Source of the DNA: an uncultured Dialister sp.
GTDB lineage: Bacteria; Bacillota; Negativicutes; Veillonellales; Dialisteraceae
DNA: 64,000 nt
Direction of reading: 5' to 3'
Assembly (NCBI GenBank): GCA_934178345.1
Contig: CAKPQG010000007.1
Location: forward strand, 9,817-73,816
Shown here: in pieces, positions 11,093-48,145 of the stretch
How positions within the stretch are numbered: position 1 is the first letter of the stretch
How the letters are laid out: each line of letters begins with the position of its first letter
The notes under the pieces: model-generated
Told to the model about the DNA's origin: nothing
Seen by the model: the letters and a program-made list of their open reading frames with translations, nothing else
Databases searched by the model: none
Made by a program: the position numbers and the translations under genes

Positions 11093-12820
11093 TTATTTAG
11101 CCGTGATCGCTCTTGTCCCAAAGAGTGTCTTAAACCGATCCGGTGTATCGTCATAGTGATCGGAGGTGATGTCGTTCTCTGGTTCATAGAAATCGGGGAG
11201 GCGGATGCCCATCAGGGCGAGCTGGGTGTCGAAGACGAGGTCATTGGTCCAGCGGCTCTTTTGGCGGGCGGCAAGATTTTCCATGAGCTTTGGGTGAGAG
11301 GAGAGGTAGGTGTCGGAAAAGGCCATGTAGAGGGGAATGTAGGTCATCTCGGGGACGTAGATGGTGGGATTATGGTCGAGGTGCAGGTCGATCGCTTCGC
11401 CATGGTCAGAGAAGTAGAGGAGGGTCTGGAAGTCGGGGCGGGCAGCGAGTGTCTCATACAGTTTTTCCATCACGTAGTCGTGGAAGAGGATGGTATCGTC
11501 ATATTGGTCGCGATAGGGATCGTCGCTGTGGATCTTCTCGTAGCTGTTGGGATGGTGATAGGCGTAGGGCATGTGGCTTCCCATGTAGTGCAGGATGACG
11601 AGGGTCTTCTCGCTGCTCTTCATGCGTGTGAGCTCTTCAATGAGGGCATCGTCGTAGACGTCAAGGTCAGCGGTGGTGCCGAGGTGACTGTTTCGCCAGT
11701 GCTGCTCGTCGGCTTCGGAGGCGATGATGGTGGTCGGGGTATCCCATGCGCTGAAGCGGACCTGGTTGCTGATCCATACGGTGTGAAATCCGGCGGCTTT
11801 GGCGGCTTCGATGAGGGAGGGGGCGTCTGCAAGGGGAATGTCGTTATACTGGTTCTTCGCTGTCAGAGCATAGGAGAGCGCGGGGACGGTCTGCACGTAG
11901 CAGCTGTAGGCGTCATCAAAGAAGAGAAAGTGCGGGTCGTTTCTGCGAGAAGAAAGCCATGGGGTGGTCGGACGCGGGTAGCCGTAGACGCTCATGTGCT
12001 CGCTGTTCTCTGATTCGCCGATGGCAAGGACGTAGAGTCCGGGAGCCGAGGAAATCGTGAGATCCGTGAGACGGCTTGTGCGTTCTTTGGATTTCTGCTC
12101 AAAGTCAGCGTAGGCTTTCCTATAGTCCTGCACGCCGATCCACGGCGTGATGATGGGATTGCTGTAGGAAAGGGTGAGGCTGACGGGAGCCGCAAGGAGG
12201 AGAGTCAGGCGTGGAAGGAGAGAGGGGCAGGTGAAGATCTCACCTGTGCTGCTTTTTCTGGAAATCAGGAAGAGTGCGCCGAAGTAGAGCGGAAGGAATA
12301 GCAGCAGGGGAAGGGAGAGGTGCCCGGAGAGGTATCCGGCGGCTTCGCTGACATTTGTCTGCAGGAGAGCGAGAAGCGTTTCCGCCTCAGGGAAGCTGCC
12401 TGTCAGGAAGTAGCAGACCCATGTCACGAGGGCGGGAAGCGTCATGAGAAAGCCGGCAAGGAAGACATAGCAGGCTCTGCCTGTGACGGAGCGCGCGGGC
12501 GGCGAAAGAAGTGCGAGGATGCCCCATGCGGCAGCAGAGAAGGCGAGGGAGTCGTAGAAATCCCAGACAGGGGTGAGGAGGCCGGTCAGAAAGCGGATGG
12601 AAATCGCGGAAAAGGCGAAGAAAAGGAGCGGCAGCTGCCAGAGTGCGGGGCGGTAGAAGGTGAAGAGGAGGGACAGCGTCACGCAGGTGAAAAAGATGGA
12701 AGCGTCGTTCCATGGCGGGAAGACTTCGCGCGTCACGGCCAGGTGGAGTCCGTAGATAAGGGCAAAGAGAGCAAGCCCGATGGCCGCAAAGCGGAGAAAT
12801 GAATGTAGAATGGGACGCAA
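11093..12820 (-). CDS. phosphoethanolamine transferase (EptA/LptA-like; N-terminal 5-TM domain plus sulfatase-fold domain)
   Basis: Hydrophobic N-terminus then an alkaline-phosphatase-superfamily domain (HYMGSH, FSDHGE). TTG start with an AAGGAG RBS. Confidence 0.7.
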   Translation of the reverse strand: MRPILHSFLRFAAIGLALFALIYGLHLAVTREVFPPWNDASIFFTCVTLSLLFTFYRPALWQLPLLFFAFSAISIRFLTGLLTPVWDFYDSLAFSAAAWGILALLSPPARSVTGRACYVFLAGFLMTLPALVTWVCYFLTGSFPEAETLLALLQTNVSEAAGYLSGHLSLPLLLFLPLYFGALFLISRKSSTGEIFTCPSLLPRLTLLLAAPVSLTLSYSNPIITPWIGVQDYRKAYADFEQKSKERTSRLTDLTISSAPGLYVLAIGESENSEHMSVYGYPRPTTPWLSSRRNDPHFLFFDDAYSCYVQTVPALSYALTAKNQYNDIPLADAPSLIEAAKAAGFHTVWISNQVRFSAWDTPTTIIASEADEQHWRNSHLGTTADLDVYDDALIEELTRMKSSEKTLVILHYMGSHMPYAYHHPNSYEKIHSDDPYRDQYDDTILFHDYVMEKLYETLAARPDFQTLLYFSDHGEAIDLHLDHNPTIYVPEMTYIPLYMAFSDTYLSSHPKLMENLAARQKSRWTNDLVFDTQLALMGIRLPDFYEPENDITSDHYDDTPDRFKTLFGTRAITAK

Positions 12821-12829
12821 GGGAGACTC

Positions 12830-13470
12830 CTTTTGGTATAATGGGGTAGGGTTCAGGGGTAGCCCGTGGGGCGTGCTGCCCTTTGATTGGGGATGAAAGC
12901 TTTGCTCGAATGAGGAATTAGGAATGAGGAATTAGGAATGGTGGTGCGGCGCATAAAAATCAGAAGCGCCGCGGAGTTGTGATAGCGCTTCGCGCGCATC
13001 GTCATTTCGAGCGTAGCCGAGGGTCTTTATTGCAGAACGTTCATCGCCTGATATGAGGCAACACCAGGACATCGTTTTCCCTCGGCGCATACACGCTGAT
13101 TCCCGCAATGCACTAAAGATCCCTCGGCTGCGCTCGGGATGACGATGCCGGAGAATCCCAGTCACGCCTAATCCCCAATCCCTAATCCCTAGCCACTCAT
13201 CCCTGTTTTCAAACTTAGCCTCTGGGCGTGCCGCCCTTTGATTACGTGCGAAAGAGGTTCAGTGGGGGAGCAGGTTCGGAGGGTAGGGCGGGGATGGTGC
13301 GGCGCATAAAAACATAGAAGCGCCGCGGAGTATAGATGGTGGCGATGCCCGAAGGCGGTATTCAAGTCACCAGTCACTAGTCACTAGTCGCTCGAGGCTC
13401 CTAATCCCTAGCTACTAATTTTTAGTCACCAGTCACTCACCCCTGATTTCTAGGACTACCCCCCAAAAAA
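12830..13470. repeat. mosaic intergenic repeat cluster with a palindromic CGTCATTTCGAGCG module copy
   Basis: GGGTTCAGGGG, (AGGAATT)n, GGTGGTGCGGCGCATAAAAAT, GCGCCGCGGAG, the 210-bp module, and TAGGGAT/CAGTCAC heptads. Confidence 0.85.
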
Positions 13471-13518
13471 CATTAAACCATCATTTAATACATTCCATTA
13501 TACCAAAGAGGACGAGCT

Positions 13519-14121
13519 ATGGATGAAAAAATGAAAGAACTGGATGCGCTCTTCGATTTCTTTCGTGAAATCGACAAGGAGAAGCTGATTGAGAGGAAGA
13601 CGTATGTGACAGGAGCGGTGCGCTGGGAGAATGATGCGGAGCATGCATGGCACATGGCGCTGATGACGGTGCTTCTTTCTGAGTATAGCAATGAGCCCAT
13701 CGACGTCTTGAAGACGGTGACGATGCTGCTCATTCATGACCTCGTGGAGATCGATGCGGGGGATACGTATGCGTACAGCGGCGTATCGAAAGAAGAGCAG
13801 CATGCCAAGGAAGAGAAAGGGGCAGCGCGGATTTTCGGGATGCTGCCGAAGGAGAAGGGGGCGAAGCTCTATGCTCTATGGCAGGAATTTGAGGCCGGTG
13901 AGACGGCGGAGGCGCGCTTTGCACACGCGATGGATAATATCCAGCCGATGATGCTGAATGACTACACGGATGGGAAAGCGTGGCGGCAGTTCGGCGTATC
14001 GCTTTCCAAGATTTATAAAAGAAATGAGCTGACGCCGAAGGGCTCCCGCGTCCTTTGGAAGTATGCGAAAGAAAAAATCCTCGCGCCGAATGTGGCTAAG
14101 GGAAGGATCCGGGACGAATGA
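13519..14121 (+). CDS. HD-domain hydrolase (YfbR-like 5'-deoxynucleotidase family)
   Basis: H...HD...D metal motifs (AEHAWHMALM, IHDLVEIDAGD). Confidence 0.65.
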   Translation: MDEKMKELDALFDFFREIDKEKLIERKTYVTGAVRWENDAEHAWHMALMTVLLSEYSNEPIDVLKTVTMLLIHDLVEIDAGDTYAYSGVSKEEQHAKEEKGAARIFGMLPKEKGAKLYALWQEFEAGETAEARFAHAMDNIQPMMLNDYTDGKAWRQFGVSLSKIYKRNELTPKGSRVLWKYAKEKILAPNVAKGRIRDE

Positions 14122-37669: not shown

Positions 37670-40537
37670 ATGAATGATTCTCAGAAAGCTGCTGTTTCCT
37701 CGACCGGCCCTACGCTCTTGATCGCGGGGCCGGGGACGGGGAAGACCTATACCATCATCCAGCGCGTGCTTTACCTCATCCGCGAGAAGAGAGTGAAGCC
37801 GGAAGAAATCATGCTGGTCACATACACGCAGAAGGCATCGAAGGAGCTGACGACGCGTCTCACGGATGTGATGACGAAGGCGGGCATCGAGGTGAATCTG
37901 CATGAGATGTACATCGGTACCTTTCATCACATTTGCCGAAAGATTCTGAAAGAATTTCAGGAGTATACGCATCTGCCGAAGAATTATCTGGCAGTGGACC
38001 AGTTCGAGCAGCAGTACATGGTGTATGAGCATCTTTCGGAATTTGCGGCCATCCCGGATTTCCGCCGTGTGGTACAGGATTCCTATCTGAAGCAGGGGGA
38101 GCTGGTGAGGATTTCTCCATGGCGCCAGTGTCAGACGCTCTGCCGCTATGTGAATGGTCTCTCCGAAGAGCTTCTCTTGCCGGAAGAGATGCGGCGGACC
38201 TGCGGGAATGCACTGGGCGGGCGCGTAGAAGTGCTCGCGCGGATGATGATGAAGTACACGCGGCTCGAAGAAGAGGGGCACTTCATTGATTTCTCCCGCC
38301 TGCAGAAGGAGACCTATGCGCTTCTTTCTTCCCATCCGGAGATCCTTGATTGGCTACAGAAACGGATCCGCTACATCATGATCGATGAGTATCAGGATAC
38401 GAATTTCATCCAAGAGCAGCTGATCCGTCTTCTGGGAGGCTCTTCGCAGCAGATTTTCGTGGTGGGGGATGATGACCAGAGCATTTATCGCTTCCGCGGG
38501 GCGTCCATCGGAAATATTCTGGGATTTTCGAAGACCTATGAGAAATGCCATACGTTCAAGCTGGATACGAATTATCGTTCGCATCCGGGCATTGTCCGCT
38601 TCTGCATGGACTGGATGCGCGGACTCAAAAGCTGGCGCGGAGCGGATGGGCGGATGTTCCGCTATGTGAAGGGGGACATTCATGCCGCGTCAGAGGAAAC
38701 GGGGACGCCCGTCCTTCGCATCACGGGGAAGGATCTTTCCGAGTGCCATGCGCGGATCGCTGATTTCATCGAAGGGCTGAAAGAACGGGGGCAGATCACG
38801 GACTATAACCAAGTGGCGGTACTCTGTTCGTCCGTGAAAAGCAATGCATCGCGCGCTTTGCAGCTGCAGCTTCGACGGAAGGGCATCGCCTCCTACGCGC
38901 CGCGGGCGGGCTGGTTCTTCAAGCGACAGGAAGTCGAGTGGCTGATCGGGACGCTCCTATTGCTCTTTCCCGGCTTTTCGGATTCCATGGAAAATCGGGA
39001 CGACATGCAGGAAACGAGGGGGATTCTCGATACATACTTCGAGTGCATGGGCGTCGCGCGGATGATGCTCGTGAAACCCGAGCACCGAGCGCTGAAAGAC
39101 TGGCTGGACCGCACGCGGAGTGTCATTTCCTATGAGAAGAAACTCCCCGCCTCTTTTTTGCACCTCGTCTACCAGATGCTCTCCTTTGCACCTTTTTCCG
39201 ACATTTTGGACAGTGCGGTCCGGGGTGAATCGAATGCAGCCAGAAATCTGTCCGCCATCACGCGCCTGATTGCCCGTTTTGGCTTCTTCCTGCCGGAGAA
39301 TCACGGGCATGGTGAGGAGACTGTGGAGGACGTGCATCTCTTCTTTTCCCGCTATCTGCGGCTGTGGTTTGAAAACGGTGTGAATGAGTACGAAGATGAA
39401 GAGCGCTATGCGCCCTCGGGCTCCGTATCCTTCCTGAATATCCACCAGGCAAAGGGGCTCGAGTACCCCGTTGTCATCGTGCCATCGCTCGACGAGAGGG
39501 CGCGCTGGGATGCGGAAAGTGACCTGATTTCCCGGGTGGTGGAAAAGGTGAGCGGACGAAAGCCTGCCGAGCCACCGAAGGAAATGAAAAATTTTGATTT
39601 ATGGCGCAAGTACTATACGGCCTTCTCCCGCGCGGAAACGCTCCTCGTCCTCGCATCTTCTCAAAAGAAGGGGGACACCTCGGAAGAATTTCAATGGATC
39701 ATGCCCGCTCTTCCAGCATATAATGCGAAAGAAGCAGACTACCACCACCTCACCTGCCGCCCTGTGGGACGGAATGTGTTCAAGCCGCGTTTCGCCTTTA
39801 CGTCGCAGATCGCCCTTTATGAAGAATGTCCGATGAAGTATCTCTGGCATCGCGTCTACGGCTTTGCAGGCACGCAGGGGAGCCATGCCATGTACGGCGA
39901 GCTTGTCCATGAGACGATCGAGGACATCCACCGCGCGGTCCTCCGCGGAGAGGCAGAACGCGTGACGCCACCTGCCATTTATGGATGGATGATGGCGAAT
40001 TACATTTCCCTGTCTGATAAAGAAAACAGCTGGCTCCCTGAGGCAAAACTGAAGCAGGCCTTTGCAGAAATTCGTGGATATGTGGATTTCCGGAAAGGAA
40101 ACTGGAATGATGCGCTCGCTGCCGAGTGTCCTCTTGAGCTGGTCAAAGATGACTACATTCTGAATGGCACCATCGACCTTCTCTCGGGAAATGGGGATCA
40201 GGTGCGGGTCATAGACTTCAAGACAGGGAAGAAACCGCCGATGGACAGTCCTCTTATGGAGAAATACCTGAGCCAGCTCAAGGTATATGCCTACCTCGTC
40301 GAAACAAAACTTGGGCGTTCCGTGGAAAAACTCGTCCTGTACTTCACCAGTGATGCCGAGGATCCATGCGTTGTTTTTCCTATGAGCAAAGAACGCGTGG
40401 AGAAGCGGATGGAAGAATTCGATGCGACGGCAAGGCGGATTCTGGCGCGTGATTTTGCGCGCCGCTGTGAAATGAAAAAGAACGAGCTCCCGACGGCGTG
40501 CCGGTTCTGCGACTTTAGAAAATATTGCAAGAGATGA
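37670..40537 (+). CDS. UvrD/PcrA-like SF1 helicase fused to a C-terminal PD-(D/E)xK (RecB/Cas4/AddB-type) nuclease domain with a 4-Cys cluster
   Basis: Helicase motifs (AGPGTGKTYT, DEYQDTN, VGDDDQSIYRFRGA, TNYRS). C-terminal IDLLSG...IDFKTGK nuclease core, and Cys at YEECP plus CRFCDFRKYC. Confidence 0.8.
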   Translation: MNDSQKAAVSSTGPTLLIAGPGTGKTYTIIQRVLYLIREKRVKPEEIMLVTYTQKASKELTTRLTDVMTKAGIEVNLHEMYIGTFHHICRKILKEFQEYTHLPKNYLAVDQFEQQYMVYEHLSEFAAIPDFRRVVQDSYLKQGELVRISPWRQCQTLCRYVNGLSEELLLPEEMRRTCGNALGGRVEVLARMMMKYTRLEEEGHFIDFSRLQKETYALLSSHPEILDWLQKRIRYIMIDEYQDTNFIQEQLIRLLGGSSQQIFVVGDDDQSIYRFRGASIGNILGFSKTYEKCHTFKLDTNYRSHPGIVRFCMDWMRGLKSWRGADGRMFRYVKGDIHAASEETGTPVLRITGKDLSECHARIADFIEGLKERGQITDYNQVAVLCSSVKSNASRALQLQLRRKGIASYAPRAGWFFKRQEVEWLIGTLLLLFPGFSDSMENRDDMQETRGILDTYFECMGVARMMLVKPEHRALKDWLDRTRSVISYEKKLPASFLHLVYQMLSFAPFSDILDSAVRGESNAARNLSAITRLIARFGFFLPENHGHGEETVEDVHLFFSRYLRLWFENGVNEYEDEERYAPSGSVSFLNIHQAKGLEYPVVIVPSLDERARWDAESDLISRVVEKVSGRKPAEPPKEMKNFDLWRKYYTAFSRAETLLVLASSQKKGDTSEEFQWIMPALPAYNAKEADYHHLTCRPVGRNVFKPRFAFTSQIALYEECPMKYLWHRVYGFAGTQGSHAMYGELVHETIEDIHRAVLRGEAERVTPPAIYGWMMANYISLSDKENSWLPEAKLKQAFAEIRGYVDFRKGNWNDALAAECPLELVKDDYILNGTIDLLSGNGDQVRVIDFKTGKKPPMDSPLMEKYLSQLKVYAYLVETKLGRSVEKLVLYFTSDAEDPCVVFPMSKERVEKRMEEFDATARRILARDFARRCEMKKNELPTACRFCDFRKYCKR

Positions 40538-41050: not shown

Positions 41051-41266
41051 TAATAAATATACGGTTATGATAAATGTGATACATAGCGCATATTATATCA
41101 TTACCCATCTATTCATATCATTTATTAAAACCATGATTGATACCAATTCATACAGACTATTGATTTTGCAGCTTTCACTGGTTAAAATAGTACTATCAAA
41201 CGCTAAAAGCGCATCAGAATGACGCGGTTATCGTGTTCATTCTATTTTATTGAGAGGGAGAATCTC

Positions 41267-44200
41267 ATGAGACGAATCCATAAAGTACTGGTAGCCAACC
41301 GCGGCGAGATCGCGATCCGCGTATTCCGAGCCTGCAGTGAAATGGGCATCCGCACCGTGGCTATCTATTCGAAAGAAGATATCCTGTCCCTGCACAGAAA
41401 CCGCGCAGACGAAGCCTACCTGGTCGGTGAAGGGGATAAGCCGATCGATGCCTACCTTGACATCGAAGACATCATCCGTATCTGTAAGGAGCATGACGTC
41501 GATGCCATTCATCCGGGCTACGGCTTCTTGGCTGAAAACGCGAAGCTCGCGCAGCGCTGCGAAGAAGAAGGCATCATTTTCATCGGGCCGAAGGTCGAAC
41601 ATCTCATCATGTTCGGCGACAAGGTGAATGCCCGCATTCAGGCAGAAAAAGCCCAGATCCCGATGATTCCGGGGACAAAGGGTGCGGTTCACAGCTTTGA
41701 CGAAGTGAAGGCTTTCGCAGAAACCTACGGATTCCCGGTCATGATCAAGGCTGTCAACGGCGGCGGCGGACGCGGCATGAGAAATGTCGACCGCATGGAA
41801 GATCTGGAAGAAGCGTACAGCCGTGCGCGCTCTGAAGCAAAGATGGCCTTCGGTGATGATGAAGTCTATGTCGAACGCTGCATCATGAATCCGAAGCACA
41901 TCGAAGTACAGGTCATGGGCGATGAACACGGCAATGTGGTGCATCTCTTCGAACGTGACTGCTCCATCCAGCGCCGTCACCAGAAGGTCATCGAAATGGC
42001 ACCGGCGTGGTCTCTTCCGAAGGCACTCAGAAAGAACATCTGCGATGCAGCTGTCAAACTGATGAAGAATGTCCACTATGTGAATGCCGGCACAGTCGAA
42101 TTCCTGGTCGATCAGGATGAAGAGCACTTCTATTTCATCGAAGTCAATCCGCGTGTCCAGGTCGAACACACCGTCACGGAAATGATCACCAATGTGGATA
42201 TCGTAAAGAGCCAGATTCTCATCGCAGAAGGCTATGCTCTTGACGGGCCGGAAATCGCCATTGGACAGCAGGATGAGATCTGGTACAAAGGCGTTGCGAT
42301 CCAGTGCCGTATCACCACGGAAGATCCGCAGAACAATTTCATGCCAGATACCGGCAAAATCATTGCTTATCGTTCCGGCGGCGGACCGGGCATCCGTCTC
42401 GATGCCGGCACGGCTTACACCGGTGCTGTCATTACCCCGTACTATGATTCTCTCCTCGTCAAAGTCACCGCGCATGCCCTTCATCCGAAGGACACCATCC
42501 ACAAGATGCTCCGCTGCCTCGAAGAATTCCGCATTTCCGGCGTGAAGACGAATATCTATTTCCTGCAGAACATGCTTCGTACCCGTGATTTCCAGGAAGG
42601 GCTCTGCGATGTCAACTACATCGACAGAAACCCGTGGCTCCTGCAGGAACCGGATATGATTTCCGACCGCGGCACGAAGCTGCTCTCCTACATTGGCGAC
42701 ATCACCGTCAATGGCTATGCCGGTGCCGGCCATCAGGAAAAACCGGATTTCAATCCGCTTCCGCTGCTCGATGCAGACAAGATCGAAGCGCCGAAAGGCA
42801 CCCGGCAGCTGCTCGATGAAATGGGACCGGAGAAATTCTCCAAGTGGGTCATGGACCAGAAGGAAGTCATGTTCATGGATACCACGTACCGCGATGCGCA
42901 CCAGTCTCTGCTCGCGACCCGTGTCAGAACCCATGACATCATGAATGCCATCCACTACACGGCTGTTCACGTCCCGCAGCTCTTCTCCTTTGAAAACTGG
43001 GGCGGCGCGACTTTCGACGTGGCTTATCGTTTCCTTGATGAAAGCCCGTGGGAACGCCTTCGCCAGATGAGAAAAGCTGCACCGAACATCCTCTTCCAGA
43101 TGCTGACCCGCGGTGCGAATACCGTCGGCTATACCAACTATCCGGAAAATGTTGTCCGCCACTTCATCGATCAGGCGGCTGACAATGGTGTCGATGTCTT
43201 CCGTATCTTCGACTGCCTGAACCAGCTCAGCCATATGACCGTTACCATCGACGAAGTCCGCAAGAAAGAAAAGCTCGCCGAAGCCTGCTTCTGCTACACT
43301 GGCGATATCATGGATACGAACCGTCAGAAGTACTCCCTGAAATACTACACCGACCTTGCGAAACAGATGCAGGATGCCGGTGCGAACATCATCGCCATCA
43401 AAGACATGGCGGGTCTCCTCAAGCCGGAAGCTGCCTATGCCCTGATTTCTGCGCTGAAAGATGCCGTCGATCTCCCGATCCATCTCCATAGCCATGAAGG
43501 CGGCGGATGCACCCTGTACTCCTATGCCAAAGCTGTCGAGGCTGGCGTCGATATCTTGGACGTGGCGACCAGCGCACTCTCTGGCGGCACCAGCCAGCCG
43601 TCTATGACATCTGTGTACTACGCGCTGCAGAACAATCCTCGCCAGCCGCAGCTGGATATCGATGCGCTTGAGACCATCGACCGCTACTGGCAGGGTGTCC
43701 GTCCGTACTATGCAGGCGTCGACTCTAAGATGACGAATCCGAATACGACCCTTTACCAGCATGAAATGCCTGGCGGACAGTACTCGAACCTGCGCCAGCA
43801 GGCAACGGCTGTCGGCCTTGGCGCCCAGTGGCCGGAAGTCTGCCGCATGTATGCGAAGGTCAATATGATGTTCGGCGATATCATCAAGGTCACCCCGTCC
43901 TCCAAAGTCGTCGGCGACATGACCCTCTTCATGGTACAGAACCATCTGACCGAGAAAGACATCTATGAAAAGGGTGATACCCTCGACTTCCCGCAGTCCG
44001 TTGTCGATTTCTTCGACGGCAAGCTCGGCATCCCGTATGGCGGCTTCCCGGAAAAACTCCAGCAGATCATCCTGCGCGGACAGAAGCCGCACCTCGAAAG
44101 CCAGCCGGAGAATGTCGACTTTGAAGAAGTCAAAATGGAAATGAAAGAGAAGCACATCCCGACCCGCGAAGAAGATGTCTCCTCCTACTGCATCTATCCG

Positions 44201-44695
44201 AAAGTCTTCTCCGACTACATGGATCGCTATCATAAATATGGCGACCTCTCGCTCCTCGATACGCCGACCTATTTCTTCGGCATGAAAGTCGGTGAAGAAA
44301 TCCGCATCAACATCGATGAAGGCAAGATGCTCCTCGTTCGCCTTGATAATGTCACGAAACCGGACCTGGAAGGCAACAGAGAGCTTCAGTTCGAGCTGAA
44401 CGGCATGCCGCGCGAGATCAAGATTCACGACGCTCATGTGGCAGAGTCTGCGAATACCTCCAGAAAAGCGGACAAGGACGTACCGGGTGAAGTCGGTGCG
44501 ACACTCTCCGGCTCCGTGGTAAAACTCCTCGTCGAAAAAGGCTCCTCTGTCAAGAAGGGCGACCCCGTCATCGTCACCGAAGCGATGAAGATGGAAACCA
44601 CCATCACCGCGCCGATGGATGGTATCGTGAGTGAGATCCATGTCAAGGCTGGTCAGCGCATCGAATCCGGCGACCTTCTCATGGTTATCGAATAA
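41267..44695 (+). CDS. pyc: pyruvate carboxylase
   Basis: Biotin carboxylase N-domain (MRRIHKVLVANRGEIAIR), carboxyltransferase TIM-barrel domain, C-terminal biotinyl domain (EAMKMET). Promoter TTGATT-17-TAAAAT at 41151-41179. Confidence 0.92.
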   Translation: MRRIHKVLVANRGEIAIRVFRACSEMGIRTVAIYSKEDILSLHRNRADEAYLVGEGDKPIDAYLDIEDIIRICKEHDVDAIHPGYGFLAENAKLAQRCEEEGIIFIGPKVEHLIMFGDKVNARIQAEKAQIPMIPGTKGAVHSFDEVKAFAETYGFPVMIKAVNGGGGRGMRNVDRMEDLEEAYSRARSEAKMAFGDDEVYVERCIMNPKHIEVQVMGDEHGNVVHLFERDCSIQRRHQKVIEMAPAWSLPKALRKNICDAAVKLMKNVHYVNAGTVEFLVDQDEEHFYFIEVNPRVQVEHTVTEMITNVDIVKSQILIAEGYALDGPEIAIGQQDEIWYKGVAIQCRITTEDPQNNFMPDTGKIIAYRSGGGPGIRLDAGTAYTGAVITPYYDSLLVKVTAHALHPKDTIHKMLRCLEEFRISGVKTNIYFLQNMLRTRDFQEGLCDVNYIDRNPWLLQEPDMISDRGTKLLSYIGDITVNGYAGAGHQEKPDFNPLPLLDADKIEAPKGTRQLLDEMGPEKFSKWVMDQKEVMFMDTTYRDAHQSLLATRVRTHDIMNAIHYTAVHVPQLFSFENWGGATFDVAYRFLDESPWERLRQMRKAAPNILFQMLTRGANTVGYTNYPENVVRHFIDQAADNGVDVFRIFDCLNQLSHMTVTIDEVRKKEKLAEACFCYTGDIMDTNRQKYSLKYYTDLAKQMQDAGANIIAIKDMAGLLKPEAAYALISALKDAVDLPIHLHSHEGGGCTLYSYAKAVEAGVDILDVATSALSGGTSQPSMTSVYYALQNNPRQPQLDIDALETIDRYWQGVRPYYAGVDSKMTNPNTTLYQHEMPGGQYSNLRQQATAVGLGAQWPEVCRMYAKVNMMFGDIIKVTPSSKVVGDMTLFMVQNHLTEKDIYEKGDTLDFPQSVVDFFDGKLGIPYGGFPEKLQQIILRGQKPHLESQPENVDFEEVKMEMKEKHIPTREEDVSSYCIYPKVFSDYMDRYHKYGDLSLLDTPTYFFGMKVGEEIRINIDEGKMLLVRLDNVTKPDLEGNRELQFELNGMPREIKIHDAHVAESANTSRKADKDVPGEVGATLSGSVVKLLVEKGSSVKKGDPVIVTEAMKMETTITAPMDGIVSEIHVKAGQRIESGDLLMVIE

Positions 44696-44715
44696 GAGAA
44701 ATACATAGCGCTTGA

Positions 44716-44746
44716 AAAACCGCTCTGCCAAAGCAGGGCGGTTTTT
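44716..44746 (+). terminator. intrinsic terminator
   Basis: AAAAACCGCTCTGC-caaa-GCAGGGCGGTTTTT. Confidence 0.7.
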
Positions 44747-44819
44747 GATCGTGAGAGCAACTAGGAGGCGCATTGATTTTCCTATCCTTTTTTTGCTAAA
44801 ATATAGGCAATAAAGGAGG

Positions 44820-45578
44820 ATGAAAACAGTGTTCACATTTTACAAAAATTCGCAGAAGGGGCAGGATCTTGTCGAGTATGCGCTAATGCTCGCGATCATC
44901 ATCGGTATCGGATGGGGGATCTACTCCCAGACAGGAGTCGCAGACTCGATCAAGAATGTGTTCGGAAATGCATCGAGCCTTATGGAGACGGCGAAGAAAC
45001 AGGGAGTGAACCTGAATTGGGATGAGATCTTGAAGCGTCTTCGTGAAGTGCAAAGCAAGGATGCTTATAACTCAGGAAATACGACATCGGGAATGAGTTA
45101 TAAGCGTGGGATGATTCAGTCTGGTTGGCTCACGGATGATGACAAGAAGGACAGCACGATCGGGAAGCTGGCTTCCGAACTGGGTGCGACCATGTGGACA
45201 TTTTATAATGGCGAAAATCAAGGAAAGTTGGGAACTGAAGGTGGCGGATTGTATTGGACGACGGAAGATCTGAAATCCGCTGAGTTGCATGCCGAGGGGA
45301 ATAACCCTTATAGCAAGGAAACCGTTCTTTCCTATCGCTATGATCCATTGACGGAGAAGTACTACGTACTTGAAAATCGAGCTTTTGTGAATCAGATCGG
45401 TAGAAATTGGGCCTTTAATAACAATGCTTTAGCGCAGGCACCGAGCGAATATGAAAAGCCTGCGGCAAACGTATTAGGCACCTACAGCACCTATGAGGAA
45501 GCACAGAAGAAGTATAACGAAGTGAAAGCCCAGCATGACGGCAACTATATCTATATGGGGACAACACAAACGAACTAA
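44820..45578 (+). CDS. Flp-type (class III prepilin signal) leader fused to a roughly 200-aa uncharacterised domain, paralogue 1
   Basis: N-terminus MKTVFTFYKNSQKG/QDLVEYALMLAIIIGIG matches the Flp/Fap prepilin G/xxxxEY motif plus a hydrophobic helix. 252 aa total. Confidence 0.7.
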   Translation: MKTVFTFYKNSQKGQDLVEYALMLAIIIGIGWGIYSQTGVADSIKNVFGNASSLMETAKKQGVNLNWDEILKRLREVQSKDAYNSGNTTSGMSYKRGMIQSGWLTDDDKKDSTIGKLASELGATMWTFYNGENQGKLGTEGGGLYWTTEDLKSAELHAEGNNPYSKETVLSYRYDPLTEKYYVLENRAFVNQIGRNWAFNNNALAQAPSEYEKPAANVLGTYSTYEEAQKKYNEVKAQHDGNYIYMGTTQTN

Positions 45579-45593
45579 GGAAGGAGGAAAAGC

Positions 45594-46349
45594 ATGCTTC
45601 ACCGGTTTCGTAAAGAAAAAGGAGCGAAAGGCCAGAACATGGTCGAGTACGCGCTGATACTTGCGATCGTCGTCGGTATCGGCTGGGGGATCTACGATCA
45701 GGTCGGTCTTAGTGGTTCCATCAAAGGGGTTTTCTCAGATGCGGGAAGTCTTCTGGAGGATGCGTCCAAGGCGGAAAAGGCAGCTTTTGATATCAAGCCG
45801 TCTATCGACAAGCTGAAGTCGCTCTACAACAAGTATAACCGTGGTGATGGAAACATGAATGCTGGAGACCAGAATACCAAACGTGGCATCCTGATGGATT
45901 TCTGGCTGGATGATACAGATAAGAAAGATGCAGACATCGCCAAGCTCACCTCTGAGCTGGGGGCGAAGCAGTGGACCTATTATCATGGCGAAGGACCGAA
46001 GTATCCGAATTCCATCAGCAGTGATTCCGTGGGACTTTACTGGAGCACGGAGAATTTATCGAAGGCGTCGCTGACAGAGTCGCCTGATAATTACAGCAAG
46101 GAGTCCGTGCTCTCTTACTACTATAATGGCAGCAACTACTATGTCATGAAGAATCGTGTGTGGATGGATCAGAAGCAGTATAATAATAACGGACAACCGG
46201 GGCTGGCGTCCAAGGGAAATGAGTATGGCAAGCCACCGGCAGAAATTGTCGGAAATGCGAGTGGCTACCGTACTTATGCAGAAGCTCAGCAGGCATTCAA
46301 GGATGCCGTTTCTGACAATGGCGGAAGCTTTATTTTCCAAAATCAATGA
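45594..46349 (+). CDS. Flp-type leader fusion protein, paralogue 2
   Basis: N-terminus ...KGAKG/QNMVEYALILAIVVGIG. About 40% identical to paralogue 1 through the C-terminal domain (shared W..DD.DKKD..I.KL.SELGA, GLYW.TE.L, KE.VLSY.Y motifs). AAGGAGG RBS. Terminator hairpins at 46370-46402 and 46470-46510. Confidence 0.7.
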   Translation: MLHRFRKEKGAKGQNMVEYALILAIVVGIGWGIYDQVGLSGSIKGVFSDAGSLLEDASKAEKAAFDIKPSIDKLKSLYNKYNRGDGNMNAGDQNTKRGILMDFWLDDTDKKDADIAKLTSELGAKQWTYYHGEGPKYPNSISSDSVGLYWSTENLSKASLTESPDNYSKESVLSYYYNGSNYYVMKNRVWMDQKQYNNNGQPGLASKGNEYGKPPAEIVGNASGYRTYAEAQQAFKDAVSDNGGSFIFQNQ

Positions 46350-46523
46350 TGAGTCAGTCAGGCATCATAAAAGCCGCCGAAGTGTTTCGGCGGCTTGCTT
46401 TCTGCAGGAGATTGTCGTACAATAACCATAGGAAAGGCGCTATCCGGAAACGGCTTCCGCCCTTGTTGAAAAGAACAGAGAAACCGCCAACGTTGGACCG
46501 TGAGGCGGTTTTTCTGTTGTGGG

Positions 46524-46592
46524 TTAGTACTTAGCTACGATCATGCAAAGAAGCAAGAGCAGCAGAAAGGCGAAGAAATCGTATTTCGTCAT
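46524..46592 (-). CDS. 22-aa hydrophobic small protein (MTKYDFFAFLLLLLLCMIVAKY)
   Basis: Strong GGAAGGGGGGTGG RBS 4-7 nt before the ATG. Extended -10 (TGcTATAAT) about 55 nt upstream on the minus strand. Single predicted TM helix. Confidence 0.45.
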   Translation of the reverse strand: MTKYDFFAFLLLLLLCMIVAKY

Positions 46593-46849
46593 ACTACCAC
46601 CCCCCTTCCGGAAAGGATGGGGCAGGCAAACCGCTACCGTGTCACATGATAGCGCCTTTAAATATTATAGCATACGCGCAGCCGGCATGTCTTGAAATCC
46701 AAACTGTTCAGTATAGTGAACAAATTTCCAAAAACGGAAAAAGTTTTCACTATACTGAATAGTTTTTTGATTTTTGGAAAACTTTTCAGTAGGAGTGAGG
46801 AGTGTCGGTCTTGTGCCTGAAATGTCATCTGAAGCCATTGAATCCATCC

Positions 46850-47110
46850 ATCTGAAGTTTGAAAGCAGGGATGATTAGTAGCCAGGGATTAGTGGCTAGG
46901 GATTAGGAGCCTCGAGCGACTGGTGACTAGTGACTTAAATACCGCCTTCGGGCATCGCCACCATCTATACTCCGCGGCGCTTCTATTTTTTTATGCGCCG
47001 CACCACCCCCTTTTAAACCCTCTGAACCTAAAGAACCCGCTGAACCTCTTTCGCACGCAATCAATGGGTGAAGCCGCCCCAAGGGCTAACCCTAAAACCT
47101 GAACCCATCA
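46850..47110. repeat. mosaic intergenic repeat cluster
   Basis: AAGTTTGAAAGCAGGGATGATTAGTAGCCAGGGATTAG, GCGGCGCTTCTATTTTTTTATGCGCCGCACCACC, (GAACCNNNN)n, and GGCTAACCCTAAAACCTGAACCC. Confidence 0.85.
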
Positions 47111-47263
47111 ACCTGAACCTTCACCTCATTTACATTCTATTTACAATCTAAACTCAAACCGTACACCATTCTCTCTTTCCTTTTTACATCCATCCCTTAG
47201 ACTACAAATATCAACGCAAGAGAAAACAAAAAATAAAAGGTATGTCTCTAAGGAGGACACAAA

Positions 47264-48145
47264 ATGAAACTCAAAAAAATGATGGCACTGGCACTGGCTT
47301 CTACCGCTTTGATCGCAGCAGCAGGCTGCGGTGGAAACAGCCAGCCGGCAAAGAGCGGTGCTGCTTCCGGCGCGAAGGTCACAGGACAGGTCACTTCTTC
47401 CGGTTCTTCCGCACTGCTTCCGCTGGTAAAGGATGCGGCTGCTAAGTTCAAGAGCAAGAATCCGGAAGTATCCCTGACACTGAATGCAGGCGGCTCCGGC
47501 ACAGGCTTGAAGCAGGTCGCTGAAGGCTCTGTCAACATCGGCAATTCCGATGTACCGGCTGAAAAGAAGCTGCCGGCTGAAAAAGCCAAAGGCCTCGTAG
47601 ACCATAAGGTCTGCACCATGACTGTTGCTACCATCATCAATAAAGATATCGCTGACAAAGTGAAGAGCCTGACCGCCCAGCAGCTGCAGGATGTCTTCAC
47701 TGCCAAAGTCACGAACTGGAAAGAGGTAGGCGGCCCGGATGAACCGATCGTCCTCGTCACCCGTCCGACCACCTCCGGCACCCGCGCTCTCTTCACGGAA
47801 TTGGCTCTCGCTGGTCAGGAAGAAGCATCCAACAAATCTCTGGAAACTGACGACAGCGGTACGCTGATCCAGAGCGTAGCACAGACCAAGGGTGCTATCG
47901 GCTATGTCGCTCTTCCGTACCTCGTCAACAACAAAGACGTAGCGGCTCTTGCCATCGACGGCGTGGCACCGACGCTGGAAAATACCTATAACGGCAAGTA
48001 CAAAGTCTGGGGATATGAACACATGTACACCAAGGGCGAACCGACCGGTGCCGTCAAAGCGTTCCTGGACTATATCCTCTCTGATGAATATGGCGTAGAG
48101 ATCGAAAAGCAGGGCTACGGCGTTTCCTCTAAGATGAAGAAATAA
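47264..48145 (+). CDS. pstS: phosphate ABC transporter substrate-binding lipoprotein
   Basis: Lipobox LIAAAGCGG; PstS-family motifs (SSGSSALLP, GSGTG); AAGGAGG RBS. Confidence 0.88.
   Translation: MKLKKMMALALASTALIAAAGCGGNSQPAKSGAASGAKVTGQVTSSGSSALLPLVKDAAAKFKSKNPEVSLTLNAGGSGTGLKQVAEGSVNIGNSDVPAEKKLPAEKAKGLVDHKVCTMTVATIINKDIADKVKSLTAQQLQDVFTAKVTNWKEVGGPDEPIVLVTRPTTSGTRALFTELALAGQEEASNKSLETDDSGTLIQSVAQTKGAIGYVALPYLVNNKDVAALAIDGVAPTLENTYNGKYKVWGYEHMYTKGEPTGAVKAFLDYILSDEYGVEIEKQGYGVSSKMKK

Follow-up and report, generated by a model that had tools for sequence, protein, structure and literature searches.

Tandem Genes Joining a Flp-Type Pilin Module to a Hypervariable C-Terminal Domain in a Gut Dialister

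The Flp pilins of Tad pili are all-helical proteins of 40–60 mature residues, defined by the absence of a globular domain, and the surface of the Tad filament is made by the C-terminal half of Flp (PMC10710030). TadG-type proteins form the backbone of Tad tip complexes (PMC12075869); in Myxococcus the Kil tip proteins Tip1-4 expose variable fold-orphan domains, are in some cases encoded off-locus, and need small Flp-like adapter pilins (Herrou et al., 2025, PMC12075869). Streptococcus sanguinis PilB (vWA module) and PilC (lectin module) are proposed to be tip-located minor pilins acting as adhesins (Raynaud et al., 2021, PMC8179133), and the survey of such modular pilins, which are of T4a type, was keyed on the IPR012902 N-methylation motif and did not cover Flp (PMC8179133). 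Here we describe genes A and B, two tandem paralogues in a 64,000-nucleotide stretch of the uncultured Dialister sp. contig CAKPQG010000007.1 (assembly GCA_934178345.1; hereafter the window), whose products are predicted to join a complete Flp pilin to a C-terminal domain of about 190 residues. Modular T4a pilins, and Tad tips with variable domains on TadE/F/G-type N-termini, are already known; no description was found in the literature searched of a full Flp core with a globular domain that lacks a detectable structural relative, nor likewise of within-species hypervariability, an orphan location and several sister families. The coding features are as follows.

44820–45578, + strand: gene A, 252 aa (249 aa from GTG 44829), Flp-type pilin plus novel domain (open reading frame list)
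44820–44861, + strand: gene A class III leader peptide, aa 1–14, MKTVFTFYKNSQKG; predicted prepilin-peptidase cut after Gly14
44862–44999, + strand: gene A Flp module, aa 15–60; hydrophobic α1 helix and amphipathic helix, read as a complete mature Flp pilin
45003–45575, + strand: gene A C-terminal α/β domain, aa 62–252, hypervariable between strains
45594–46349, + strand: gene B, 251-aa paralogue of A with its own ribosome-binding site GGAAGGAGG 6 nt upstream (open reading frame list)
45630–45632, + strand: Gly13 of gene B, ending its leader (aa 1–13); predicted cut site after it
45633–45770, + strand: gene B Flp module, aa 14–59, followed by the C-terminal domain

The N-Terminal Part of A and B

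The initial annotation described A and B as two tandem paralogues, and this stands: both are in the open reading frame list, they are 42% identical across 244 aa (BLASTP, E 1e-52), and the motifs quoted for them are all present (KGQ[DN][LM]VEYAL, W..D.DKKD..I.KL.SELGA..WT.Y.GE, GLYW.TE.L, YSKE.VLSY.Y and Y.EAQ). Each protein begins, as that annotation had also noted, with a basic leader ending in glycine, followed by Q-[DN]-[LM]-V-E-Y and a hydrophobic helix. With the predicted cut marked by a slash, the sites read KG/QDLVEYALMLAIIIGIGWGIY in A and KG/QNMVEYALILAIVVGIGWGIY in B, that is, the glycine of a class III leader, the xxxxEY motif with Glu5 and Tyr6, and a hydrophobic helix of about 20 residues. 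In a six-frame scan of the window, G-x4-E-[YF] plus a hydrophobic stretch occurs only at these two sites, and a degenerate DNA pattern for VEYAL.LAI has two matches against 0.00 expected. The in-frame GTG 44829, 9 nt 3′ of ATG 44820, is the more likely start of gene A as judged from the nucleotide context, because the ribosome-binding site AAGGAGG directly abuts the ATG; initiation there would give the leader MFTFYKNSQKG, then QDLVEY, and a protein of 249 aa, matching many 249-aa database homologues.

A phmmer search of 1.84 billion representative proteins gave 128 matches of three kinds: about 25 full-length clusters, many 50–90-aa proteins matched over residues about 11–60 only, and proteins of about 200 aa that have the same region in front of several unrelated C-terminal domains (database proteins are given below as P numbers and contigs as L numbers). 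Residues 8–60 match the 50–80-aa proteins at E 1e-9 to 1e-10 with 57–66% identity, including P0167 (E 4.5e-10) and P0172 (E 2.0e-9), and these lie where Flp pilins are encoded. P0167 is the product of one of three tandem genes of about 75 aa between T2SSF and TadE in a tad operon (L018, an unrelated taxon by composition). P0172 and P0180 lie in complete diderm-type Tad loci (L023–L026) containing Peptidase_A24, TadG-like, RcpC, Secretin, two TadZ-like ATPases, T2SSF, Flp, TadE, T2SSE, T2SSF and DUF192. A metagenome scan with two peptide patterns from the TadA of these loci recovered at least 21 further Tad loci, each with one Flp (mature length 49–57 aa) followed by TadE, the Flp being 50–72% identical to the first 46 mature residues of A. 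Homology to pilins in the Flp position of tad operons is therefore seen for P0167 (L018), P0172 (L024) and the at least 21 loci. The cut sites agree as well: Flp of the related loci has KG/QD[ML]VEY and TadE has GG/QDxxEF (e.g. GG/QDFVEF), so that both use G/QDxVE[YF], and the corresponding sites are KG/QDLVEY in A and KG/QNMVEY in B.

These observations indicate that the N-terminal part of A and B, as read from sequence, is a whole Flp pilin, comprising a leader and about 46 mature residues. The initial annotation had proposed a Flp-type leader; its kinship to genuine Flp pilins of Tad loci is upheld, and what is shared is an entire Flp pilin and not the leader alone. Assignment to the Flp class is made on homology and genomic context, formal Pfam membership not being reached. 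Like the Flp/Fap pilins (Caulobacter PilA, 8u1k/8u2b; Aggregatibacter Flp1), A and B have a basic leader ending in glycine, G/xxxxEY with Glu5 and Tyr6, and a hydrophobic α1 followed by an amphipathic helix, about 46 mature residues being alignable. Unlike them, they add an α/β domain of about 190 residues, giving a mature length of about 238 aa where Flp is small and all-helical (about 40–60 aa), lie away from tad genes, and score below the Pfam cut-off.

A whole-family profile (A1) run against 177,635 PDB sequences matched only the Caulobacter Tad pilins 8u1k and 8u2b, weakly (E 0.85 and 2.8) and with E-Y in register. The Pfam families shared by more than one short relative, all sub-threshold, were Flp_Fap (7 of 22), Class_IIIsignal (7 of 22) and Flp1_like (4 of 22). 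No NCBIfam match was found for A or B, nor any match to PF07811 (TadE) or PF13400 (Tad) even at E up to 10, and a query of the first 62 aa alone brought back nothing but A itself in truncated or frameshifted form. Charged D and E residues directly follow the glycine, and the helix has no A-x-A type site after it.

The C-Terminal Domain and Related Families

The C-terminal domain (residues 62–252 of A) was modelled with AlphaFold2 using an alignment of 20 diverse members, giving a pLDDT of 89.3 and a pTM of 0.88; the predicted fold is α/β with long β-hairpins and a C-terminal helix. In the full-length model, the Flp helices (aa 11–35 and 40–59) are followed by a low-confidence linker (about aa 60–66) and then by the independently folding domain. 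The model had no significant structural match among the solved and viral structures searched, and the domain of about 190 aa had no Pfam, NCBIfam or PHROGs match; Rfam likewise found nothing in 44500–47400. Among 708 homologues of gene A, none is named and none has a Pfam domain, and no member of the family is named in any public source searched. The suggestion that this is not a described family is supported, and the structure comparison proposed for the domain gave a confident model without a match in those structures. A domain-only profile recovers 607 proteins, and since the 120 listed are all 187–252 aa long, the domain appears among them only behind this Flp module. Its conserved positions are aromatic-rich, e.g. 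the invariant Trp in LGAT.W and GLYWTTE, which, speculatively, would suit a binding surface.

In architecture, A resembles the modular type IV pilins, having a small pilin module, a short linker and a bulky module. It differs from them in several respects. No N-methylation or prepilin match is found in Pfam or NCBIfam, and the motif in A and B is Flp-type (Gln at +1, Glu5, Tyr6); the carrier is a helix-only Flp, whereas theirs has a small globular part; and the attached module is without a known fold or recognisable domain, whereas theirs are known domains. With the Myxococcus Tad tips, A and B share a pilin-like character, a prepilin cleavage site and variable fold-orphan domains, and distant relatives of A adjoin TadG-like genes; their N-termini are, however, Flp-type (E-Y, full Flp core) and not TadE/TadG-type. 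The variation also differs in kind, being allelic within one species for A and between paralogous clusters in one genome for Myxococcus.

The distant relatives in question are P0140, P0141 and P0154, full-length members at 28–31% identity from unrelated, lower-GC taxa. They adjoin genes whose products have PF13400 (Tad) and PF07811 (TadE) N-termini (E 1e-12): a TadG-like gene lies immediately downstream of P0140 and P0141, with a 14-nt overlap at P0141, and one lies on each side of P0154. The Dialister genes have no adjacent TadE/F/G partner, the paralogue being the only one. The idea that these proteins are minor or tip pilins therefore gains from the three distant members and finds no such neighbour in Dialister.

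At least four other families, of about 200 aa, combine a KGQDxxEYAL Flp module with unrelated C-terminal domains, marked by the motifs DRNYADAMAKMLKDAI, IIERLRQGRYDGLA, VYDRHMKWLKDTL and AIRNGSLHL (P0165, P0171, P0175, P0189, P0194, P0195, P0199, P0211, P0214, P0221, P0230, P0231 and P0237). P0171 (L021, 8438–9055), the sole member checked for context, is an orphan among housekeeping genes.

Allelic Variation at the pyc-pstS Slot

In every contig examined, all alleles occupy one slot, between pyc (pyruvate carboxylase) and pstS. The slot holds A alone in L003 and L015–L017, A and B in the window and in L012–L014 (with an 87% identical B-type copy 3′ of A in the latter), and an extra, unrelated AAA_14/DUF4143 ATPase gene in L001 and L013. 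Protein A is 97% identical to its counterpart in Dialister sp. i34-0019-2H8. Among strains whose flanking proteins are 97–99.6% identical, A is 58–97% identical overall and its domain alone down to about 46%. Across 189 full-length relatives, G-Q-[DG]-[LF]-V-E-Y is kept in all 189 and residues 11–60 show 97–99% majority-residue conservation, the variable parts being the leader ahead of the cut and the domain. This combination of a conserved assembly helix and a variable exposed part is the classic pilin signature.

Substitution rates (Nei-Gojobori) show the same division. The flanking pyc and pstS have dN 0.003–0.01 and dS 0.17–0.28, the Flp module has dN of about 0–0.008, and the C-terminal domain of A has dN up to 0.47, with dS saturated in the divergent alleles; where dS is estimable, dN/dS of the domain is about 0.25–0.37, some ten times the value for the flanks. 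The Flp module of L004 and L015 keeps a flank-like dS (0.08–0.25) and a low dN (0.008), which places a recombination boundary at the module-domain junction. Across alleles, the pattern points to the exchange of long-standing allele classes at a fixed position, and not to local hypermutation. Silent cassettes or invertible elements were considered as the source of the hypervariability and none were found, A and B being the only copies of module-coding DNA. A phage or defence origin was considered and set aside, given the lack of PHROGs matches, the housekeeping flanks and the status of the AAA_14/DUF4143 ATPase gene as a separate insertion.

A comparable arrangement is that of the Pseudomonas aeruginosa pilA groups I–V, in which divergent alleles, alike at the N-terminus and unlike at the C-terminus, share one chromosomal slot between conserved genes with variable accessory genes. 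That pilA encodes a T4a major pilin and lies beside its machinery genes; A and B differ in being Flp-type fusions far from any machinery.

Signals around the two genes, which are separated by 15 nt, are listed below.

44715–44746, + strand: terminator-like hairpin belonging to the pyruvate carboxylase gene upstream (inverted repeat I3, 14-nt arms, 93% complementary, then a T run)
44773–44802, + strand: promoter-like site for the A-B pair (TTGATT, 18 nt, TAAAAT, extended −10 TG; consensus scan, pattern match only)
44813–44819, + strand: gene A ribosome-binding site AAGGAGG, read from sequence; abuts ATG 44820 and lies 9 nt before GTG 44829
46495–46511, + strand: terminator-like hairpin 3′ of gene B (consensus scan, pattern match only)

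The terminator-like hairpin at 44715–44746 may set gene A apart from pyc transcription. The longest open reading frame for pyruvate carboxylase begins at ATG 41219 (41219–44695, 1158 aa); public gene calls place the start at 41267 (1142 aa, MRRIHKVLVANRG...), probably correctly. Nested imperfect palindromes (46701–46791; 27–39-nt arms, 74–85% complementary) occupy part of the 900 bp that separate B from pstS, at the place taken by the AAA_14/DUF4143 ATPase gene in L001 and L013; they may represent an insertion site or an operator. Local divergence is seen in one more gene near the slot: a UvrD-helicase/PD-(D/E)XK nuclease gene (37670–40537) is about 85% identical in most conspecific contigs and 98% in L002, while the adjacent pyruvate carboxylase is >99% identical in all of them.

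Two observations concern the assemblies themselves. Contig L003 (CAVBQN010000018.1), labelled as part of a Fusicatenibacter saccharivorans metagenome-assembled genome, carries the Dialister pyc-pilin-pstS locus with flanking proteins 98–99% identical; it is probably of Dialister origin and assigned to the wrong bin. Metagenome assemblies contain dozens of copies of A, 55–106 aa long, that are truncated or frameshifted (P0126, P0130, P0135–P0137, P0144 and P0249–P0280) and break at differing points just past the conserved Flp module. They probably reflect breaks in assembly where conserved meets variable sequence in samples of mixed strains, although real pseudogenes or phase variation may lie behind them.

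Possible Roles and the Question of Machinery

In the reading we favour, with a probability of roughly 0.6, both proteins are modular type IVc (Flp) pilins, matured by an A24 peptidase and carried on a Tad-type filament or at its tip. We infer cleavage, incorporation, placement in the filament and a role in adhesion from these comparisons, in the following form. A and B would be made as prepilins and inserted into the inner membrane through the hydrophobic α1 helix; an A24 (TadV/CpaA-type) prepilin peptidase would cut after the leader glycine (G14/Q15 in A, G13/Q14 in B); and a Tad-type machine would handle the protein via its complete, highly conserved Flp core of about 46 residues. The 190-residue domain, on its short low-confidence linker, would project outwards, and because of its bulk it would most likely be placed at the tip or in a sparse minor subunit, acting as a ligand-binding (adhesin) surface. 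The hypervariability would arise from the exchange of old allele classes by recombination at the junction of Flp module and domain, and is what would be expected of an exposed structure under phage or host-antibody pressure.

Several observations weigh against this proposal. The 64-kb window has no Tad or prepilin peptidase gene, as the initial annotation had remarked, and no type IV pilus gene, the 44 other large open reading frames being housekeeping or transport genes by Pfam scan; A and B thus do not lie within or beside a tad locus (tadV, rcpCA, tadZABC, tadEFG). The slot in which a relative keeps such a locus is empty here: the window region 12821–13518, between the Sulfatase gene and the HD_3/YfbR-like gene (13519–14121), consists of about 700 bp of non-coding DNA, rich in repeats and free of tad remnants. 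None of the listed 21 Tad contigs, nor L023–L026, is from this species by composition, their correlations being 0.57–0.81 as against 0.91–0.95 between independent 10-kb pieces of the window and its remainder, although this is a weak negative, coming from a scan with two peptide patterns and from the loci listed. For Pfam Flp_Fap (PF04964), B reaches 13.4 bits (E 0.069, aa 12–50) against a cut-off of 32.2 bits and A has no match at all, so that of the profile check proposed for Flp_Fap and TadE there is a weak sub-threshold Flp_Fap hit for B, none for A, and no TadE match. An N-terminal-only profile (A3) finds 8u1k at E 0.4 among equally weak, unrelated PDB matches. The packing of helix against domain is modelled with low confidence (pLDDT 53–60 for aa 31–60), the predicted domain differs from the globular domains of pilins, and a helix with a rise of roughly 5 Å, as in Tad, may leave too little room for 190 extra residues on every subunit. 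As to the Pfam scores, stand-alone relatives in tad operons themselves reach no more than 24.8 bits, which suggests that the Flp_Fap model under-detects this clade.

The syntenic comparison is with a related Veillonellaceae taxon (L024–L026; GC 48%, tetranucleotide correlation with the window 0.76), in which a Sulfatase gene and an HD_3 gene enclose a complete Tad locus of about 15 kb; the TadA proteins of L023 and L024 share 88% identity. Window genes at about 13.5–15.7 kb are syntenic orthologues (52–76% amino acid identity) of HD_3 and of the gene that follows it downstream, and the Sulfatase gene matches window 11093–12820 (minus strand) by Pfam family and position. The empty slot may mean that the species keeps its machine elsewhere, or that A and B have been freed from pili. 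Support for machinery comes from the literature: a pilQ-type secretin is given for D. invisus, D. micraerophilus and D. succinatiphilus (PMC5007114, supplement), a type IV pilus locus for Negativicutes generally (PMC5007114), and two Tad systems with secretins are on record in diderm Firmicutes (PMC6668835). Nothing relevant on Tad or Flp in Dialister was found in the literature searched.

Two features of these regions were seen in passing. A REP-like intergenic palindrome (GGTGCGGCGCATAAAAA, 2–4 nt, AGAAGCGCCGCGGAG), which can form a GCGGCGC/GCGCCGC stem-loop, occurs 16 times in the 64 kb against 0.01 expected, with two copies in the empty Tad slot and two flanking pstS; among the sites are 1759, 9433, 12943, 13296, 16013(−), 22131(−), 35820(−), 40661(−), 40902(−), 46988(−), 48465, 52510, 54865(−) and 61243(−). 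In the Tad loci of L024–L026, a gene for a 457-aa GT_STM0557_N glycosyltransferase-like protein (L024, 2524–3897; also in L025 and L026) lies between the TadG-like gene and RcpC, and the stand-alone Flp pilins end in Ser/Thr/Ala-rich tails, which together hint at pilin glycosylation.

The rival account that survives best, though we consider it unlikely, is that A and B are cargo with a class III signal, cut by the peptidase without becoming filament subunits, the Flp module serving as a targeting and processing tag. Such proteins might be released to the periplasm, exported via the Tad secretin, or build a short structure anchored at the surface. This arrangement would resemble the bindosome of Sulfolobus, with its sugar-binding proteins that bear class III signal peptides. 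Leader and motif match Tad substrates, the domain is large, globular and unlike any pilin, and the genes are orphans far from any machinery, as is that of P0171 (L021), one of the proteins of about 200 aa with the same module and a different C-terminal domain. The whole Flp core of 46 mature residues is, however, 97–99% conserved with dN of about 0, which fits an assembly interface better than a tag, and the distant members pair with TadG-like minor pilins, which are components of filament tips.

More doubtful is a reading in which neither protein is processed and both stay in the inner membrane by an N-terminal anchor, the domain lying in the periplasm and having some role there. They would be what is left of a Tad system that the species has lost, with the Flp module now a signal-anchor. 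The syntenic Tad slot is empty and without remnants, none of the Tad loci listed is conspecific, strains differ in copy number (A only, A and B, or A with the unrelated ATPase), and many truncated copies occur in assemblies. A plain anchor would not, however, need near-invariant Gly−1, Glu5 and Tyr6 and 46 residues across 189 alleles; a dN/dS tenfold that of the neighbours and deep allele classes are unexpected for a periplasmic protein; and three Dialister genomes, one of them that of the GC-similar D. succinatiphilus, are reported to have secretin genes. Very improbable is a convergent resemblance to Flp, with an ordinary Sec (SPI) signal peptide or transmembrane helix on ordinary secreted proteins: the Pfam scores are sub-threshold and short hydrophobic segments readily give weak matches, but homology to proteins in the Flp position of tad operons is significant in 1.84 billion proteins and spans 50 residues at 57–72% identity, and D and E directly after the glycine with no A-x-A type site past the helix do not fit such a peptide. 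The near-invariance of the 46 core residues across alleles argues against all three accounts.

If A and B are displayed modular pilins, they may represent a previously unrecognised class of type IVc subunit, which we term "long Flp", consisting of Flp plus a new-fold domain and placed on Tad pili from an orphan, recombination-prone locus; this extension is tentative, and we put the odds somewhat against it. A common gut commensal would thereby gain a swappable pilus surface. On this view there would be at least four or five such families, the Dialister one among them, each joining the Flp module to an unrelated C-terminal domain of about 150–200 aa. In a stronger version, a globular Flp may form the entire filament, contradicting the helix-only view of Tad pili.

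Tad/Flp pili are now defined by a tiny, helix-only subunit, and their functional diversity is credited to the TadE/F/G tip complexes. If the proposal is correct, attaching a large domain to a complete Flp would add a third means of giving Tad pili function, and the idea of the modular pilin would extend from T4a to type IVc pili. The domain is attractive for structure determination because it has no resemblance among the solved and viral structures searched, and its allelic diversity at one chromosomal slot offers a marker for strain typing and for selection by phage or host IgA. For Dialister, an abundant and little-studied diderm Firmicute of the human gut, it would provide a concrete candidate adhesin or antigen.

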